DNA from: Myxococcales bacterium
Lineage (GTDB): Bacteria > Myxococcota_A > Polyangia > Polyangiales > Polyangiaceae
Direction of reading: 5' to 3'
NCBI GenBank assembly: GCA_025359105.1
Contig: JANYHK010000007.1
Coordinates: 42,958 to 74,957, forward strand
Length of the DNA stretch: 32,000 bases
The translations under genes were made by a program, and so were the position numbers. Every line of letters starts with the position of its first letter. The first letter of the stretch is position 1. Below, piece by piece: positions 1 to 31,601 of this stretch. The notes under the pieces were generated by a model, which was given only the letters and a program-made list of their open reading frames with translations, was not told the origin of the DNA and made no database searches.

Positions 1-2723
1 TCGTCATCGACGGCCAGGACGTCGTCGCGAGCGAGCGGGCGACGATCCTCGACGTCGCCCGCCGCGAGAAAATCTTCATCCCCACGCTCTGCTACGACCC
101 GCGACTTGCCTCGTTCGGCGCCTGCCGCGTGTGCCTGGTGGGCGTGAAGGGCGCGCGCGGGCCCATCGCCGCCTGCACGACGCCGGTGCGCGAGGGGATG
201 GTCGTCGACACGAAGGATCCAACGGCCACGCGGGTCGCCAGGGGCACCGTCGAGCTCGTCCTCTCCGACTACCCGGCCGCCGCCCTCGCCCGGGAGGGAG
301 AGCGGAACGAGCTCCGCGACGTCGCCGCGCACTTCGGCCTGGAGAGGAGCCGCTTCGCGGGCGAGCGCCACGAGTACGCCAAGGACGATCGGCACCCGTA
401 CATCAAGGTCGACATGAACGAGTGCATCGTCTGCGGGCGATGCGTGCGCGCGTGCGACGAGATCCAGGGCACCTTCGCGCTCGCATACGCGGGCCGCGGC
501 TGGGGAACGCGAATCGTCGCCGGCGCAGACTCCGGCTTCAAGGACAGCGCGTGCGTCTCGTGCGGCGCCTGCGTGCAGACATGCCCGACCGGGGCGCTCG
601 ACGAGGCGGCCTTCCGCACGAAGGAGACGCTGGATCGCACAGTGACGACGACGTGCGCGTACTGCGGCGTCGGATGCTCGCTGGAGGTGCACGTCCGCGG
701 CGAGCAGGTCGTCTCGATCGACCCCGCCGAGCACGGCCCATCGAACCTCGGCCACACCTGCGTCAAGGGCCGCTTCGCGCACCAGTACGCGCGCGCCAAG
801 GATCGACTGACCTCGCCCATGATGCGACGCCCCGACGGCACGTGGCGCGAGGCGAGCTGGGACGAGGCGATGGGCTTCGTCGCGAGCCGCATCGGCGAGA
901 TCGTCGCCAAGCACGGCCCCGACGCTGTCGCCGCGATCAGCTCGAGCCGCTGCACGAACGAGGAGAACTACGTCCTCCAGAAGCTCTTTCGCGCCGCCGT
1001 CGGCACGAACAACATCGACAACTGCTCGCGCGTCTGCCACTCGCCGACGTCCCTCGGCCTCATTCGCTCGCTCGGCGAGTCGGGCGGGACGAACTCGTTC
1101 GAGGACATCGATCACACGCATTGCCTCCTCGTCACCGGCGCGAACCCCACGGAGGGACACCCCGTCGTGGGTGCGCGCATGAAGGAGGCCGCGCTGCGCG
1201 GCGCCAAGCTGATCGTCATCGATCCGCGCCGCATCGAGCTCGCCGCGATGGCCGACGTGTACCTGCAGCTTCGCCCCGGCTCCAACGTCGCCGTCTACAA
1301 CGGCCTGGCGCACGTCATGCTGCGCGACGGCCTCGTCGACGCGGAGTTTCTGGCCGGCCGCGTCGATCTGCTCGACGAATTCCGCGCCCACGTCGCCCAG
1401 TGGGATCCGAAGCGCGTCGAGGAGATCAGCGGCGTCCCCGGCCGGGATCTCGAGCGCGCGGCGCACCTCTACGCGACGACGTCGCCGGCCGCGATCTTCT
1501 ACGGCCTCGGCGTGACGGAGCAATCGCAGGGCGTCTCCGGCGTGCGCACCCTGACGAACCTCGCCATCTTGACCGGCAACTTCGGCAAGCGGGGGGCGGG
1601 CTCGAACCCGCTGCGCGGCCAGAACAACGTGCAGGGCTCGAGCGACATGGGAGCCCTCCCCACCTACCTCACGATGTACCGACGCATGAACGACGACGCG
1701 GTGCGCATCGCCTTCGAGCAGCGCTGGGGCCGGTCCATCCCCACCGAGCGCGGCCTCATGATCCCCGAGATGTTCACGAAGGCCGTGAGCGGCGAGCTCA
1801 AGGCGATGTACGTCTTCGGCGAGGACATCGCGCAGACCGATCCCAACCTCGAGCACGTCGACAAGGCGCTGCGAAACCTCGATCTCCTGGTGGTCCACGA
1901 CATCTTCGAGAACGTGACCGCGCGCTTCGCGCACGTGATGCTGCCGGGCTCGAGCTTCCTCGAGAAGACCGGCACGTTCACCAACGCGGAGCGACGCGTG
2001 CAGATGGTTCGCGAGGCGGTCGCGCCGCCGGCGGACGCGCGGCGCGATCTCGACATCTTGCTCGATCTCTCGAAGCGCCTCGGCTACACGATGCCGCACG
2101 CGTCCGCAGCCGACGTGATGGACGAAATCGCCGCGCTCACGCCGCACCTGACCGGCATCTCGCACGAGCGGCTCGGTACGCAGGGGCTGCAGTGGCCAGT
2201 GTGGACCAAGGAGCACCCGGGCACGCCCGTGCTCTACGAGGAGAAGTTCGCGACCCCCAACGGGCGCGCGCGCCTGTTCGCCGTCGACTGGGAACCGCCG
2301 GGCGAGCTCGCGAGCGACGATTTCCCCCTCGTCCTCATTACCGGCCGTCAGCTCGCGCACTACAACTCGGGCACGCAGACGAGGCGCACGGGCAACCTCG
2401 AGCTGCAGGGCGAGGACTGGGTCGAGCTGAACCCGGACGACGCCGCCGATCTGACCATCGCCTACGGCGACGTCGTCGAGGTCGAGAGCGCGCGCGGCAA
2501 GGTCACGACGCGCGCGTGCGTCACGAAGCGCGTGGCACCAGGGAACGTGTTCCTCGCCTTCCACTTCCCGGACGTGAAGACGAACCTGCTCACGAGCGCG
2601 AGCTCCGACCCGGGCACGCGGTGCCCCGAGTACAAGGTGAGCGCGGTGCGCATTCGCAAGGTCGCGGCGAACGCGGCGCCGACGCCGATCGCCAAGGGCT
2701 TCCGGCAGGACGCGTTCGACTGA
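1..2723 (+). CDS. fdhA: Formate dehydrogenase alpha subunit, NAD-dependent/NuoG-like type (molybdopterin oxidoreductase), 5' end truncated by the window edge
   Basis: The reading frame is open from base 3 (VIDGQDVVASERATILDVARREKIFIPTLCYDPRLASFGACRVCLVGVKG, a 2Fe-2S ferredoxin-like N-terminus), so the GTG at 129 in the ORF track is not the true start. Motifs present: 4Fe-4S CIVCGRCVRAC and CVSCGACVQTCPTGAL, MopB-type cluster TTCAYCGVGCSLEV, CVKGRF, and a long molybdopterin-binding body. The active-site motif CSRVCHSPT uses a TGC Cys codon, not TGA. fdhD follows 5 nt downstream. Confidence 0.93.
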   Translation, partial: VIDGQDVVASERATILDVARREKIFIPTLCYDPRLASFGACRVCLVGVKGARGPIAACTTPVREGMVVDTKDPTATRVARGTVELVLSDYPAAALAREGERNELRDVAAHFGLERSRFAGERHEYAKDDRHPYIKVDMNECIVCGRCVRACDEIQGTFALAYAGRGWGTRIVAGADSGFKDSACVSCGACVQTCPTGALDEAAFRTKETLDRTVTTTCAYCGVGCSLEVHVRGEQVVSIDPAEHGPSNLGHTCVKGRFAHQYARAKDRLTSPMMRRPDGTWREASWDEAMGFVASRIGEIVAKHGPDAVAAISSSRCTNEENYVLQKLFRAAVGTNNIDNCSRVCHSPTSLGLIRSLGESGGTNSFEDIDHTHCLLVTGANPTEGHPVVGARMKEAALRGAKLIVIDPRRIELAAMADVYLQLRPGSNVAVYNGLAHVMLRDGLVDAEFLAGRVDLLDEFRAHVAQWDPKRVEEISGVPGRDLERAAHLYATTSPAAIFYGLGVTEQSQGVSGVRTLTNLAILTGNFGKRGAGSNPLRGQNNVQGSSDMGALPTYLTMYRRMNDDAVRIAFEQRWGRSIPTERGLMIPEMFTKAVSGELKAMYVFGEDIAQTDPNLEHVDKALRNLDLLVVHDIFENVTARFAHVMLPGSSFLEKTGTFTNAERRVQMVREAVAPPADARRDLDILLDLSKRLGYTMPHASAADVMDEIAALTPHLTGISHERLGTQGLQWPVWTKEHPGTPVLYEEKFATPNGRARLFAVDWEPPGELASDDFPLVLITGRQLAHYNSGTQTRRTGNLELQGEDWVELNPDDAADLTIAYGDVVEVESARGKVTTRACVTKRVAPGNVFLAFHFPDVKTNLLTSASSDPGTRCPEYKVSAVRIRKVAANAAPTPIAKGFRQDAFD

Positions 2724-15560: not shown

Positions 15561-16376
15561 TCAGGGCGTTGGCAGCGGCAGGCCGAGCGCCCCGGGGCCG
15601 CCCATCACGCACGTGCCGAAGAACTCGCTCGGGCAGCCGCCGGCGAGGAAGCGCGTGCGGCAAGCAGCCATGCAGCCGCTCATGTCGCCTCCGGCAGAGC
15701 AGGTGCCCGGGCACTCGCTCGCCATCTGGCAGACCTTGGCGCACGCGCGTTTGTGTTTCGCGAGCGAGGCGGCGCGGGCGGCGTTGCACTTCTCACGCGC
15801 CGCGCCGCATCCACCGGTCACGCAGCGGTCGGCGGCGCCGACGCACGCGTCGCGGCACGCTCCGCACGAGGCCGCGCACGCGCGCTTGCACGCGTCGTCC
15901 TGGCACGCACGCTTGCACGACCCGCAGCCGGTGACGCAGCGCTTTCCGCATGCGTCGCAGCCGGCGGTGCACTTGGGCTTGCACGTCTCTTCCTGCACGT
16001 CCAGGCACGGGTCCGGCACGCACGACTGCTCGAACAGGAACTTGCAGGACAGCAGGTTCGGCCGACCGGAGGGCGTCTCGTCCCTGGACGAATCGTCGGC
16101 CGGAGGCTCCCATGCGCAGTCGCGTGCGAGCTCGGCGACGATGGCTTCGTCCTTCCACGACGCAGGCGCGGGCGGCGCCGGGGGGCCTGCGTCGCGAGGA
16201 GGCGCGCTCGGCGAAGCGGCGGGCGCGCTCGGCGCGGCGACAGGACCCGATGCGGACGGCAACGAGGCGGTCGCGCCCCCCGGCGCCGTCGCGTGCGCTG
16301 CGATGGGTGGCGACTCCGCCCTTCGCGTGCAGGCGAAGGGCATGAGCGCGAGCGCGAGCAGGGCGAGGCTTCGCAT
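15561..16376 (-). CDS. Lipoprotein with densely repeated CX3C/CX2C motifs (Csp/DUF326-like Cys-rich helical repeat candidate)
   Basis: The ATG at 16376 has GGAG about 10 nt upstream. The signal is MRSLALLALALMPFAC, followed by an A/P/S linker. Then comes CKPKCTAGCDACGKRCVTGCGSCKRACQDDACKRACAASCGACRDAC and further Cys pairs, roughly 28 Cys in about 165 residues. Confidence 0.7.
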   Translation of the reverse strand: MRSLALLALALMPFACTRRAESPPIAAHATAPGGATASLPSASGPVAAPSAPAASPSAPPRDAGPPAPPAPASWKDEAIVAELARDCAWEPPADDSSRDETPSGRPNLLSCKFLFEQSCVPDPCLDVQEETCKPKCTAGCDACGKRCVTGCGSCKRACQDDACKRACAASCGACRDACVGAADRCVTGGCGAAREKCNAARAASLAKHKRACAKVCQMASECPGTCSAGGDMSGCMAACRTRFLAGGCPSEFFGTCVMGGPGALGLPLPTP

Positions 16377-16600
16377 GGGCCGCTCCGCAGAGTACACGCG
16401 CGCATCACGGCGCGAGCAGCGCTTCGAGCTTGGCGAGCAGCGCGTCGTGCGCCGTCCTCTGGACTGCGCAGGAACCTTGCGCGGACCATTGGACGGCCTC
16501 CGGGTTCGCACCGGAGATGCCGGACGGCTGCGCAGGTCGCACGTCATCGCGCGAGAAGCTCCACGGGCCTCGACGGAGACCACGTGCTAGAGCGGGGCCC

Positions 16601-17671
16601 ATGCAGCGAGCTCATGCATGGGTCGGGCTGGCGTTGGGCCTCGCCGTCGCCTGCTCCTCGTCCTCTCCGTCGTCCGGTCCGGGCGGCGGCACTTCGAGCG
16701 GCGCGCCGGCGTCGACGGGGGACGCCGGCCTCCCGCCGCAGGCGAACCCGGGCGAGTCGCAGGTGTCGTTCCATACGCCGAAGGACCAAGCCACGCAGCT
16801 CGTCGTCGGTATCGACGCCGAGGACTTCGCCTCCCAGGGCTACATGGTCAGGGCGCTCGAGGTGGTGGTCACCGTCGACGGCGTCGTCGCGGCCCGCGAG
16901 ACCCTCGACGCGGAGGCGGGCGCGCTGTTCCCCCACGCCGTGCGGCTCGTCGCGCCGAAGGACAGGCCGAACGCGGCGGTCGCCATCAAGATCACGGCGC
17001 GCGCACCCGGCGCCGATCTCGTCTTGCGCACGGCGAAGACAGCCTTCGTCGCCGGACGGACACGCCTCGCGTACCTCTTCCTCGAGACGCGCTGCACCCT
17101 GTTCGGCATCGGCGGCGGCGGGTCACCGCCGGGGCCGACGTGCACGAACCCCGGCGAGACGTGCATCGGCGGCGCCTGCGCGCCCGACGCCCTCGGGGCG
17201 CTTCCCGACTTCACCGCGGACTGGGCGACGAACCCCCCGAGCGCATGCGGGACCGGCGCGGCCGGCGAGCTCCTCGTCGGAAAAGGCCAGACCGCGTTCG
17301 CTCCCGTCGCCGACGGCGACACGCTCACCCCCGAGTGCGGCCCGCAAGGCGGGCACCACCTGTGGATGGCGCTTCGCATGAAGAACGTCGGCCAGTTCGG
17401 AAGCAAGACGGTCCTCTCGGCGACGCAGCCGGCCGGCACGGCGTCGGTCCCCCTCACCGGCTTCGCATACGCGTGGGCGCCCGCCGCCGCAGGGCAATGC
17501 GAGCTGGTCGGCGTGCGCTTTCAGCTCGACGTCGGCGCCACCCCGGTCGCCGCGTTCCTCGGCAAGCCGCTCGACATCACCGCCACGACGGACGACAAGG
17601 CCGGCCACCACGCGTCGATCGTGAGCCACGTCACGATCGCGACCGCGCCGGTCGGTCCCTTCTGCCACTGA
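16601..17671 (+). CDS. Secreted lipoprotein, function unknown
   Basis: The ATG is at 16601. The signal MQRAHAWVGLALGLAVAC has the lipobox L-A-V-A-C and is followed by an S/G linker. There are two beta-rich regions separated by a small Cys knot (PTCTNPGETCIGGACAP). No motif I recognise. Confidence 0.75.
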   Translation: MQRAHAWVGLALGLAVACSSSSPSSGPGGGTSSGAPASTGDAGLPPQANPGESQVSFHTPKDQATQLVVGIDAEDFASQGYMVRALEVVVTVDGVVAARETLDAEAGALFPHAVRLVAPKDRPNAAVAIKITARAPGADLVLRTAKTAFVAGRTRLAYLFLETRCTLFGIGGGGSPPGPTCTNPGETCIGGACAPDALGALPDFTADWATNPPSACGTGAAGELLVGKGQTAFAPVADGDTLTPECGPQGGHHLWMALRMKNVGQFGSKTVLSATQPAGTASVPLTGFAYAWAPAAAGQCELVGVRFQLDVGATPVAAFLGKPLDITATTDDKAGHHASIVSHVTIATAPVGPFCH

Positions 17672-28996: not shown

Positions 28997-29596
28997 TCAG
29001 CGAGCCGCGGCGCGGGCCTGCGCGAGGATGTCCCGTGGCGACGCGCGATCGGTCATGTTCTCGCCGACCTGCTTCCACGCGATGGTGCGATCCTTCCGCA
29101 CGACGAAGACCGACGGCACGGCGATGTCCTGCCCCTCCATCGCCACGCCGTACGCCGTCGCGACCTTCAGATCGAGATCGCCGAGCATCCGAAAGTGCAG
29201 CCCGAGCTCGCCGGCGAGCTTCACCGACTCGTCCGCCGCGTCGACGCTGATCGCGACGAGGCTCCCGCCCTCGGCTTCGAGCTCGCCTCGCATCTTCTCC
29301 AGCTCACCGAGCTGGCGGCGGCAAAAGGGTCACCAGAACCCGCGGTAAAAGACGATCACCGCGGGTCCCTTCGTGGTGAGCGCGGTGAGCGACGTCGTCG
29401 CGCCGGTCTGATCGGGCAGGGAGAACTCGGGCGCCTGCGCCGCGGCGACGACCAGCCCCGCGCGCCGCGCGATCGGGCGGTACACGCCGAAGGCCACGAG
29501 GGCGCCGAGCACGACGACGACGACGCCGAGCACGAGGCCGACGCGCTTGAGGATGCGGCGCGCGCGCGACGGCGTCTTGGCGGCGATCTCACTCAT
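28997..29596 (-). CDS. Membrane-anchored Prx-like/AhpC-TSA thioredoxin-fold redoxin, interrupted by an in-frame TGA at the first position of the CxxC motif (selenocysteine candidate or pseudogene)
   Basis: Track ORFs 29330..29605 and 28997..29293 are in the same frame. They are separated only by the TGA at 29330-29332 plus 12 sense codons. The joined sequence reads ...PAVIVFYRGFW-TGA-PFCRRQLGELEKMRGELEAEGGSLVAISVD..., so TGA sits exactly where Prx-like2/redoxin proteins have WCPxC. The N-terminal TM helix is VGLVLGVVVVVLGALVAFGV. The start is taken as ATG 29596. Confidence 0.6.
29299..29315 (-). other. SECIS-like hairpin downstream of the in-frame UGA
   Basis: On the mRNA the hairpin is CCAGCU-CGGUG-AGCUGG, a 6-bp stem (7 bp if the C-G closes to leave a GGU triloop). 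It starts 15 nt after the UGA, and the G-containing apical loop lies 21-25 nt after the UGA. As I recall the generic bacterial SECIS descriptor, the apical loop lies 16-37 nt from the UGA, which this fits. The stem is short. Confidence 0.4.
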
Positions 29597-29660
29597 CGGC
29601 GGCAACGTAGCACGGCGCCGGTGGCGCGTTTCAGCGTGTTTTCAGCCGTTTCGTGAGGGG

Positions 29661-29712: not shown

Positions 29713-30073
<361 letters not shown>

Positions 30074-30105: not shown

Positions 30106-31233
30106 TTACACCTCGCCAATTGCCGTCAGGTTGCCGTAGATTGGCGCGGGTTGCTCTAGAAGTCGGATCGCGCGCTCGGTCTCCCCTTGTGCGAGGTGCA
30201 TGTAGCCGAGCGTCGTGCCGAGGTCTTCGTGACCGGCGAGTCGTTGGATGCTGAGCGCCGGAGCGCCGCGCATCGCGAGGTGCGAGCAGAACGTGTGGCG
30301 CAGGATGTGAAGCCCTCCTGTGCCGCGCAGTTTCGCTAGCTGCTGCGCTCGGGCCATCCACTTCTGGAGGACCTTCGCGGTGACGGGCTGGCCGTCGTCC
30401 GTGTAGAGGACGCGAGCGCCGCGGAGATGACGATGCGCGGTGAGCGCTTCGCGTAGCCGCGTCGTCATGGGCACGACGCGCGACTTCATCCCCTTGGTCT
30501 CGGTGACCTTCCCCTTCCACGCCGAGCGCTCGATCGTGAGCAGCCCGCGACGCAGGTCGCAGTCTCCCCATTCGAGCGCGATGATCTCGCCACGTCGAAG
30601 CCCAGCATCACCGCCGATCAGAGTCAGCAGGTGGATGCGTGGATCGATCTTCTCGGAGGCGTCGACCAGCCACGTGTACTGGTCGAAGTCGTAGAACTTC
30701 GGTTTGCACTTCTGCCTCTTGAGGAGGAGGAAGCGGTGAGGCACTTCGCGGATCACCTTCCACCGCGTCGCGGCCCTGAACACCGTGTTCAAGGCAGACG
30801 CCGCGTTGTTGTAGGTGGCCGCGCCGTACTTCACGAGCACCCTCTTGAGTCGGTCCTCGTCCGCGGCTGCGAACGAATCGAGGCGGCGGCGAGCAAAGTG
30901 CGGGAGCAAGTAGTTCCGGAAGATGGACTCCTTGCTCTCGATGCCACTCGGTTTGTGCTTGTTCGCCACGCACCACTCTTCGATGAAACGCTCTCGGAAC
31001 GCTTCGAGCGTCGGGACCGGCCCCTCCACCACCTCCTTTCCATACGTCCCGTCGAGCAACGTTCCGCGGACGTCGCGCTCGTAGCGCTCGGCTCCGCGTT
31101 GCGTTTGCACGGGCGAGACCTTGCGGACACGCTCGCGCCTCCCGTCGGGGTGTTCGAAGTCGACATCGATCAACCAGAACCTCCGCGCCTCGCCCGTCAC
31201 CGGGTCGCGGCGCAACACACGTCGCACGCTCAT
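30106..31233 (-). CDS. int: Tyrosine-type site-specific integrase
   Basis: The ATG at 31233 has GGAGGA 7 nt upstream and overlaps the xis stop (ATGA). The catalytic-domain motifs are GLRRGEIIALEW (Arg I), HILRHTFCSHLAM (HxxR), LAGHEDLGTT and LGYMHL (Tyr). The N-terminal part is arm-binding-like. Confidence 0.92.
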   Translation of the reverse strand: MSVRRVLRRDPVTGEARRFWLIDVDFEHPDGRRERVRKVSPVQTQRGAERYERDVRGTLLDGTYGKEVVEGPVPTLEAFRERFIEEWCVANKHKPSGIESKESIFRNYLLPHFARRRLDSFAAADEDRLKRVLVKYGAATYNNAASALNTVFRAATRWKVIREVPHRFLLLKRQKCKPKFYDFDQYTWLVDASEKIDPRIHLLTLIGGDAGLRRGEIIALEWGDCDLRRGLLTIERSAWKGKVTETKGMKSRVVPMTTRLREALTAHRHLRGARVLYTDDGQPVTAKVLQKWMARAQQLAKLRGTGGLHILRHTFCSHLAMRGAPALSIQRLAGHEDLGTTLGYMHLAQGETERAIRLLEQPAPIYGNLTAIGEV

Positions 31234-31601
31234 CGTCGTTTCCTCCGTGAGCGCGAGACGCAACCTTGGCCTGACGCGAACCAGCGTAGCACCGCGTCGC
31301 GCAAGATCCGGTAGGTCCCGCCGATGCGCTGGCCGCCGGGAATAGCCCCACGCGCGAGAGCGTCGTAGACGGTCTTACGGTTCAGGCGGAGGAGCTTGGC
31401 GAGCTCCTCGACGTTCAGGAACTCGGACGGCGGCACGGGCGGCGCGGGCGCAACGTCGTTCGCCTGGGGGACGCGAAGCGAGGCCGGGGCGAGGCGACTG
31501 CTCGCCGCGACCTCTTCGACGGCCCCGAGGAGCGGCGCACGACGGCGCCGCAACAACTCGGGACCGCTCAACGCGCGAGCTTCGGCAAGCGCACGCGCCA
31601 C
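31230..31601 (-). CDS. xis: Excisionase-family helix-turn-helix DNA-binding protein (start uncertain)
   Basis: The C-terminal LNVEELAKLLRLNRKTVYDALARGAIPGGQRIGGTYRILRDAVLRWF matches the excisionase/MerR-like HTH pattern. The stop overlaps the int start. A shorter product from the GTG at 31436 (about 68 aa) is equally plausible. Confidence 0.7.
   Translation of the reverse strand: MARALAEARALSGPELLRRRRAPLLGAVEEVAASSRLAPASLRVPQANDVAPAPPVPPSEFLNVEELAKLLRLNRKTVYDALARGAIPGGQRIGGTYRILRDAVLRWFASGQGCVSRSRRKRR

Follow-up and report, generated by a model that had tools for sequence, protein, structure and literature searches.

A 32,000-nucleotide stretch of DNA from a Polyangiaceae genome assembly (contig JANYHK010000007.1; referred to as the window) carries on its minus strand, at 28997..29605, a gene for a thioredoxin-fold redoxin that is interrupted by one in-frame TGA. 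Two minus-strand open reading frames (ORFs), 29605..29330 and 29293..28997, lie in one common frame, as seen from the ORF listing and translation, and between 29605 and 28997 the sole internal stop is the TGA at 29332..29330, which is flanked as VIVFYRGFW-[TGA]-PFCRRQLGELEK. Translation probably starts from the ATG at 29596, where public gene callers also begin an 88-residue N-terminal fragment. The locus comprises the following features, where Sec is selenocysteine and SECIS a selenocysteine insertion sequence:

28997..29596, minus strand: full redoxin coding sequence, 199 codons plus the terminal TGA stop (28997..28999), with the internal UGA at codon 89.
29330..29332, minus strand: in-frame UGA, the predicted Sec codon U89, at the first position of the U-P-F-C redox motif.
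29321..29323, minus strand: TGC codon of Cys92, the predicted resolving partner of U89; this column is invariant in alignments A1 and A3.
29299..29315, minus strand: predicted SECIS minihelix CCAGCUC-GGU-GAGCUGG (17 nt), with a 7-bp stem and the loop GGU at 29308..29306.
29075..29440, minus strand: AhpC/TSA (thioredoxin-fold) domain, residues 53–174 (PF00578, E = 1.5e-27, profile positions 3–123 of 124).
29483..29542, minus strand: hydrophobic N-terminal membrane anchor, residues ~19–38 (VGLVLGVVVVVLGALVAFGV), identified from the translation and preceded by a strongly basic segment.

An earlier interpretation of this locus, made from the letters alone (the sequence-only reading), had joined the two ORFs into one protein broken only by a TGA at the first Cys of a CxxC motif, and expected automated annotation to report two fragments. 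Both points were borne out. A Pfam search with the joined protein, Cys replacing the internal stop, gave PF00578 at 96.5 bits (cutoff 26) and Redoxin (PF08534) at 2e-21, with both matches crossing the TGA in the shared frame; translation and the Cys column of homologues place the stop at the first Cys of the motif. Public gene callers divide the gene into products of 88 and 98 amino acids. The GC content at third codon positions is coding-like on either side of the TGA (0.89–0.90, in a window of 70% GC), and a search for further disabling lesions, which the sequence-only reading had named as a sign of a pseudogene, detected none in the redoxin gene. UGA is the terminator of 7 of the 13 confident genes in the window, the redoxin gene included, and the code is therefore not reassigned.

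The TGA itself is authentic. Contigs from three sequencing runs (SRR20627842, SRR23617167 and SRR20627840), which are independent assemblies of a near-identical strain and 99.8–99.9% identical to the window, encode a C-terminal fragment that is the same at every residue. Within the redoxin gene these contigs differ from the window at one base, a non-synonymous change (Ile7Thr) far from the TGA. All three have TGA at the 29332..29330 codon and none has TGC, so that a sequencing or assembly error, which the sequence-only reading had wished to see checked, is excluded.

We then compared the TGA column across homologues. The genome scan covered one genome per prokaryotic species (GTDB representatives, the window's genome not among them) and yielded 30 relatives, while the metagenome scan used a four-sequence profile, from which the best 80 loci were taken. 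The two closest genome relatives, L001 and L002 (Polyangiaceae-labelled metagenome-assembled genomes (MAGs); 50% and 53% identity), share the TGA at this column, in the contexts VFYRGHW-TGA-PFC and VFYRGFW-TGA-TYC. The other 28 comprise 27 with WCxxC at this column and one, the weakest full-length match, without CxxC. Among the best 80 metagenomic loci, the 27 closest (38–71% identity) all carry TGA. Across every locus fetched, 62 TGA forms stand against 45 TGC or TGT forms, and TAA or TAG never occurs. The TGA forms in L001, L002 and the ~60 metagenomic loci represent 43–49 distinct sequences, depending on the flank length compared, and because they are 38–71% identical they are not assembly copies of one sequence. 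Wherever enough sequence was available (60 of 60 forms), the frame stays open for 106–268 codons past the TGA, with a median of 110 that equals the window value. The family's most conserved block, GVAMEGQDIAVP, lies ~60 residues downstream of the TGA, and downstream residues are invariant in alignments A1 and A3, which shows that the protein sequence encoded beyond the TGA is constrained.

A rough neighbour-joining tree gathers the TGA forms into one large, deep clade, in which the sole Cys form is P0001 from locus L034, placed as the sister of the window protein. The column thus holds Cys or TGA, as the sequence-only reading had hoped to find on alignment. A published criterion for selenoproteins asks that two or more distinct homologous sequences have TGA at one common column (PMC1088965); here TGA recurs in L001, L002 and ~60 metagenomic loci, and the Cys partner of the Sec/Cys pair appears in 27 of the 30 genome relatives and in 45 family members overall. 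This pattern is the Sec/Cys signature used for defining bacterial selenoproteins (PMC1088965), and a private nonsense mutation cannot produce it. A single-sequence protein search had found only 4 relatives, compared with 1324 in a profile search, whose best-scoring full-length matches are Cys forms annotated as ‘peroxiredoxin’ or ‘redoxin’ and in no case as a selenoprotein.

Downstream of the TGA, the predicted minihelix (29315..29299) follows a 14-nt spacer, has a UGA-to-loop distance of 21 nt and a folding energy of −10 kcal/mol, and is embedded in the codons for R-Q-L-G-E-L-E. The published model for bacterial SECIS (bSECIS) elements specifies a loop of 3–9 nt, a stem of 4–16 bp, a UGA-to-loop distance of 16–37 nt, a minimum free energy of at most −7.5 kcal/mol, and a G at loop position 1 or 2, generally with G or U after it (PMC13188914). 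The window hairpin, with its GGU loop and 7 bp, falls within all of these limits. An Rfam scan of the window at gathering thresholds returned the neighbouring transfer-messenger RNA (tmRNA) only, with no match to a curated SECIS family.

More telling is the behaviour of the hairpin in homologues, for which we used 29 distinct TGA forms picked for the peptide motif QLG.L regardless of structure. The Leu at +7 from the TGA is encoded by CTC in 27 of 29 (gene-wide fraction 0.54) and the Leu at +10 by CTG in 28 of 29 (gene-wide 0.34), which are exactly the choices that let CAG-CTC pair with GAG-CTG. The codon of the loop Gly is variable with a preference for GGT (15 of 29, against 0.11 gene-wide), giving the GGU loop. 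The closing pair is formed by the third base of one variable codon and the first base of another, and so is not set by conserved residues; across the 29 forms it is CG in 17, GC in 4, AU in 2, GU in 2, UG in 2 and UA in 1, and is unpaired in only one. Overall, 89% of alignment cells in the 29 homologues are paired, falling to 19–52% when the 3′ strand is slid by 1–3 columns, and none of 500 shuffles reaches the observed covariation score. The synonymously frozen stem codons and the covarying closing pair are strong indications that the hairpin is under selection at the RNA level. Other subclades have other hairpins at nearly the same distance (GUCGCC-AGUUG-GGCGAC and GCCGGC-AGUUC-GCCGGC), and one Glu-to-Gly change among the subclade hairpins converts a U-A pair to U-G. 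A strict contiguous-stem model is passed by 63% of Sec forms, compared with 4% of Cys forms and 14% of GC-matched Cys forms. The SECIS-like hairpin claimed in the sequence-only reading is upheld on each count: its pairing is confirmed, it agrees with the consensus model and it is conserved where the TGA occurs.

Taking together the TGA/Cys column, the conserved and model-compatible hairpin, the three concordant assemblies and the lack of any other lesion, the selenoprotein interpretation put forward in the sequence-only reading is supported, and we place the probability that the internal TGA is a functional Sec codon with a SECIS element at roughly 0.88. Very probably the gene is intact and encodes a thiol:disulfide oxidoreductase of the thioredoxin fold, anchored in the membrane and probably facing the periplasm, with the motif U89-P-F-C92.

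Several observations weigh against this interpretation. The 81-nt region folds no better than its shuffles (z = −0.14), and 4.7% of all 515 UGA triplets in the window precede a model-compatible hairpin that is equally good. Single-sequence thermodynamics is uninformative in DNA of 70% GC, and the argument from the hairpin therefore rests on the comparative data. There too, the closest Cys relative (P0001/L034) retains the same stem, with the loop GCG; the conserved QLxEL peptide together with codon bias could explain part of the stem conservation, or alternatively the L034 stem could be the fossil of a SECIS, surviving from a recent change of Sec to Cys. No selA, selB, selD or tRNA-Sec was found in the 32-kb window or the fetched loci, as searched by Pfam annotation of 20 window ORFs and by ARAGORN on the window and 60 homologous loci. 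Sorangium and Chondromyces, which are cultured Polyangiaceae, are absent from the Sec users in the supplement of a 2016 survey (PMC5029168); the same supplement also speaks for the interpretation, as it lists the myxobacteria Haliangium, Plesiocystis, Myxococcus and Stigmatella as Sec users. Lastly, the only formate dehydrogenase-type gene of the window has no Sec codon:

3..2723, plus strand: FdhA/NuoG-like molybdopterin oxidoreductase, truncated by the start of the window, with 2Fe-2S and 4Fe-4S domains at its N-terminus.

Its frame has no internal stop and it is therefore a non-Sec form, as the sequence-only reading had stated; the gene is uninformative either way on the Sec trait.

The alternative that survives best accepts the Sec family as genuine and supposes that this organism has lost the Sec machinery, so that the gene would be a stranded relic yielding an 88-residue truncated peptide. 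The lack of sel genes and tRNA-Sec in the window, the Sec-free FdhA-like gene and the position of cultured Polyangiaceae outside the surveyed Sec users all speak for it, but the gene shows no sign of decay: there is no second lesion, the third-position GC content is as typical of coding sequence after the TGA as before it, the SECIS hairpin is flawless, and the 99.8%-identical strain has just one substitution, non-synonymous and far from the TGA. Moreover, two other Polyangiaceae-labelled genomes keep both the TGA and the hairpin at ~50% protein identity, which requires that Sec decoding has long been maintained in the lineage, and we regard the relic as unlikely.

Less likely again is that the UGA is recoded to Trp or Cys, through a near-cognate or suppressor tRNA or a local change of code, and not to Sec. 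Such a reading has a parallel in the public record, since the homologue P0006 (L116 97..618, JGI sample 3300086342) is called as VFYRGFWWTYCRGQLGEL, with Trp at the Sec position. Its DNA, however, has TGA followed by the same CCAGCUCGGUGAGCUGG hairpin, and the annotator therefore rendered TGA as Trp. Against recoding of this kind, UGA terminates 7 of the 13 window genes, the column is Cys in relatives without TGA (the classic Sec/Cys pair), Trp at the nucleophile position of CxxC would abolish redox activity, and a hairpin whose small, G-rich loop lies at the canonical spacing is specific to recoding of the SelB type. The idea of a simple nonsense pseudogene, or of two separate small genes, as the automatic 88- and 98-residue products might suggest, is the least credible of all and is effectively refuted, given that the stop falls exactly at the Cys column and is always TGA in ~60 homologues down to 38% identity, that the downstream frame is always open, that the Pfam domain spans the stop, and that neither fragment alone makes a complete thioredoxin fold.

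If the UGA is indeed a Sec codon, decoding would be expected to follow the established bacterial mechanism. As the ribosome nears the UGA (29332..29330), the mRNA 14 nt past it would fold into the 17-nt minihelix, to which SelB carrying Sec-tRNA(Sec) would bind, supplying Sec at the UGA while release factor 2 competes for the codon; translation would then run 110 codons further to the true stop (28999..28997). By analogy with the family, the selenolate of U89 would attack a disulfide or a sulfenate/peroxide as its oxidised substrate, a selenylsulfide would form between U89 and C92 as the resolving residue, and a membrane reductant system would re-reduce it. We infer that the protein may act like the TlpA/ResA-type periplasmic reductases or as a thiol peroxidase.

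Extracytoplasmic placement is suggested by the homologues as well as by the anchor of the window protein. At the N-terminus, most homologues instead carry a signal peptide of the lipoprotein type that ends in a lipobox Cys, and a few are anchored in the same way as the window protein; from these signals and anchors, the redoxin family appears to be exported and membrane-tethered.

The window gene belongs to an already known kind. Prx-like PF00578 proteins that carry UxxC constitute a recognised selenoprotein family of bacteria (PMC1088965, PMC2398784, PMC9312934, PMC13188914), known since surveys of 2004–2005: the Sargasso Sea study reported 22 Prx-like sequences and set the UxxC motif apart from Sec-peroxiredoxin (PMC1088965), and the Global Ocean Sampling (GOS) study reported 225 ‘Prx-like 1’ selenoproteins (PMC2398784). 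For Sorangium or Myxococcota, our literature search found nothing relevant on selenoproteins. Membership follows from the two defining features, as the protein has the PF00578 domain and W-U-P-F-C is UxxC rather than the TxxU of Sec-peroxiredoxin. Judged from the family description, with WP_010940744.1 of Geobacter sulfurreducens as the reference, the window protein is alike in its domain and in having Sec first in UxxC/UxxU, and also in having a bSECIS directly downstream within the coding region and Cys homologues that are far commoner overall. The window clade differs in being extracytoplasmic and membrane-tethered, by a lipoprotein signal or an N-terminal anchor, and in coming from high-GC soil-type lineages (Polyangiaceae MAGs and a Rubrobacter-like subclade) rather than from Geobacter or marine plankton.

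By sequence, the nearest solved fold is that of the peroxiredoxin BCP (2cx3, 1e-14), which leads the PDB matches ahead of ResA, DsbE and TlpA (2e-8 to 9e-5). Aligned to 2cx3, the window protein has Cys92 opposite the peroxidatic Cys of FSPVC and its Sec position opposite the Ser. The catalytic Thr/Ser of true peroxiredoxins is therefore replaced by Sec/Cys, and the motif is a thioredoxin-like UxxC. The PxxxT/SxxC signature of typical BCP/PrxQ peroxiredoxins (Thr/Ser three residues before the peroxidatic Cys) is absent from the window protein, and the NCBIfam scores for BCP (44 against a cutoff of 140) and PrxQ (23 against 260) fall short of the cutoffs. Relative to Sec-peroxiredoxin (TxxU), the window Sec lies three residues before the Sec position of that family.

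With TlpA, ResA and CcmG (DsbE), the window protein shares an N-terminal anchor or lipoprotein tether, a thioredoxin fold and a W-C/U-x-x-C motif, and it likely works in the same way. It differs in scoring far below the NCBIfam cutoffs (ResA 56.1 against 170, DsbE 25.8 against 123, TlpA 23.7 against 230), in having its best matches in the AhpC/TSA branch, and in that no cytochrome c maturation or ccdA/dsbD genes were seen beside it. No NCBIfam model reaches its cutoff; the best is NF040769, ‘SelL-related redox protein’ (57.9 against 120 bits). Like selenoprotein L, the window protein is Prx-like with a redox motif at the same place, but only profile positions 2–100 of 173 of NF040769 were matched, and the window motif is UxxC compared with UxxU.

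The SECIS element may be set beside that of E. coli fdhF, which has a minimal upper helix of 17 nt, located 11 nt after the UGA, with a bulged U. Both are small apical stem-loops of ~17 nt that follow the UGA closely within the coding region and have loops containing G and U. The window hairpin differs in its 14-nt spacer (compared with 11 nt), its 3-nt GGU loop, the absence of a bulged U and an unrelated sequence.

What is modestly new is a large, exported, nearly all-Sec clade in high-GC soil-type lineages, including Polyangiaceae-labelled genomes, that automatic annotation has missed. Annotation should treat the gene as a single selenoprotein that has a translation exception at 29332..29330, rather than as a pseudogene or a pair of fragments, and the same correction applies to dozens of metagenomic homologues. 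Its presence would indicate that the source organism and related Polyangiaceae-labelled genomes decode Sec and devote selenium to a thiol oxidoreductase that is exported and tethered to the membrane. Given its clear comparative support, the compact hairpin is a convenient natural example of a minimal bacterial SECIS within a conserved peptide. A broader proposal, which we hold tentatively and at slightly less than even odds, is that the gene may mark a large, deep, almost exclusively Sec clade of extracytoplasmic lipoprotein or membrane-anchored redoxins of aerobic high-GC soil bacteria, with a 17-nt SECIS written into Q-L-G-E-L. If true, its members would include Polyangiaceae-type myxobacteria and the Rubrobacter-like subclade, and Sec decoding would have been kept, for a periplasmic redox function, in a myxobacterial family whose cultured members are unlisted as Sec users.

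The homologues show some further structure. One Sec-containing subclade has the motif W-U-PWC[KR]HQLGEL (L057, L068, L072, L074, L075 and L101), and in three of these (L057, L072 and L074) the redoxin domain is followed by an in-frame C-terminal extension of ~145–160 residues with a high content of Gly, Ala, Leu and aromatic residues and a beta-barrel-like pattern at its end. Another large Sec subclade has the motif GDW-U-PYCNGQLASYAR (L061, L067, L076, L079–L096 and others), and around the motif is near-identical to Cys ‘peroxiredoxin family proteins’ of Rubrobacter/Rubrobacteraceae (e.g. P0020, GDWCPYCNGQLASYAR). The hairpin of this GDW-U subclade is different and bulged (ACGGGC-AGUUG-GCC(U)CGU), and the contiguous-stem SECIS test misses it. 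On L081, a metagenomic contig of 1002 nt, the TGA motif occurs twice (at 186 and 783, ~600 nt apart), which may reflect a tandem duplication or an assembly artefact.

One other TGA in the window was considered as a second selenoprotein candidate and rejected. This plus-strand TGA (17669..17671, ...GPFCH-TGA-DATEP) is the only other one with coding-like flanks, 441 codons upstream and 127 downstream, and looks like the ordinary stop of ORF 16346..17671, which ends just before a VWA-domain gene.

No conserved gene neighbourhood was found for the redoxin. In an all-against-all BLAST of the flanking ORFs from 34 loci, no neighbour was recurrent (at most 3 loci share one), and no ccdA/dsbD or sel genes were found among them. 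The Cys form P0001 (L034 3680..4213) is flanked by two AhpD/CMD-family genes, an extracytoplasmic function (ECF) sigma factor and anti-sigma factor, and a MerR-MerC-thioredoxin_3 cluster, which is a redox or metal-stress neighbourhood not shared by the window gene. In the window, the tmRNA gene ssrA (29713..30073, plus strand, tag ANDNAIALAA) is divergent from the redoxin gene and lies ~115 nt upstream of its start. A phage-type integrase gene (30106..31263, minus strand) adjoins ssrA, and together they form the classic arrangement of a genomic island integrated at the ssrA 3′ end. Two independent assemblies of the near-identical strain stop inside the tmRNA gene, at window positions 29824 and 29826, which hints at strain-variable or repeated sequence there.

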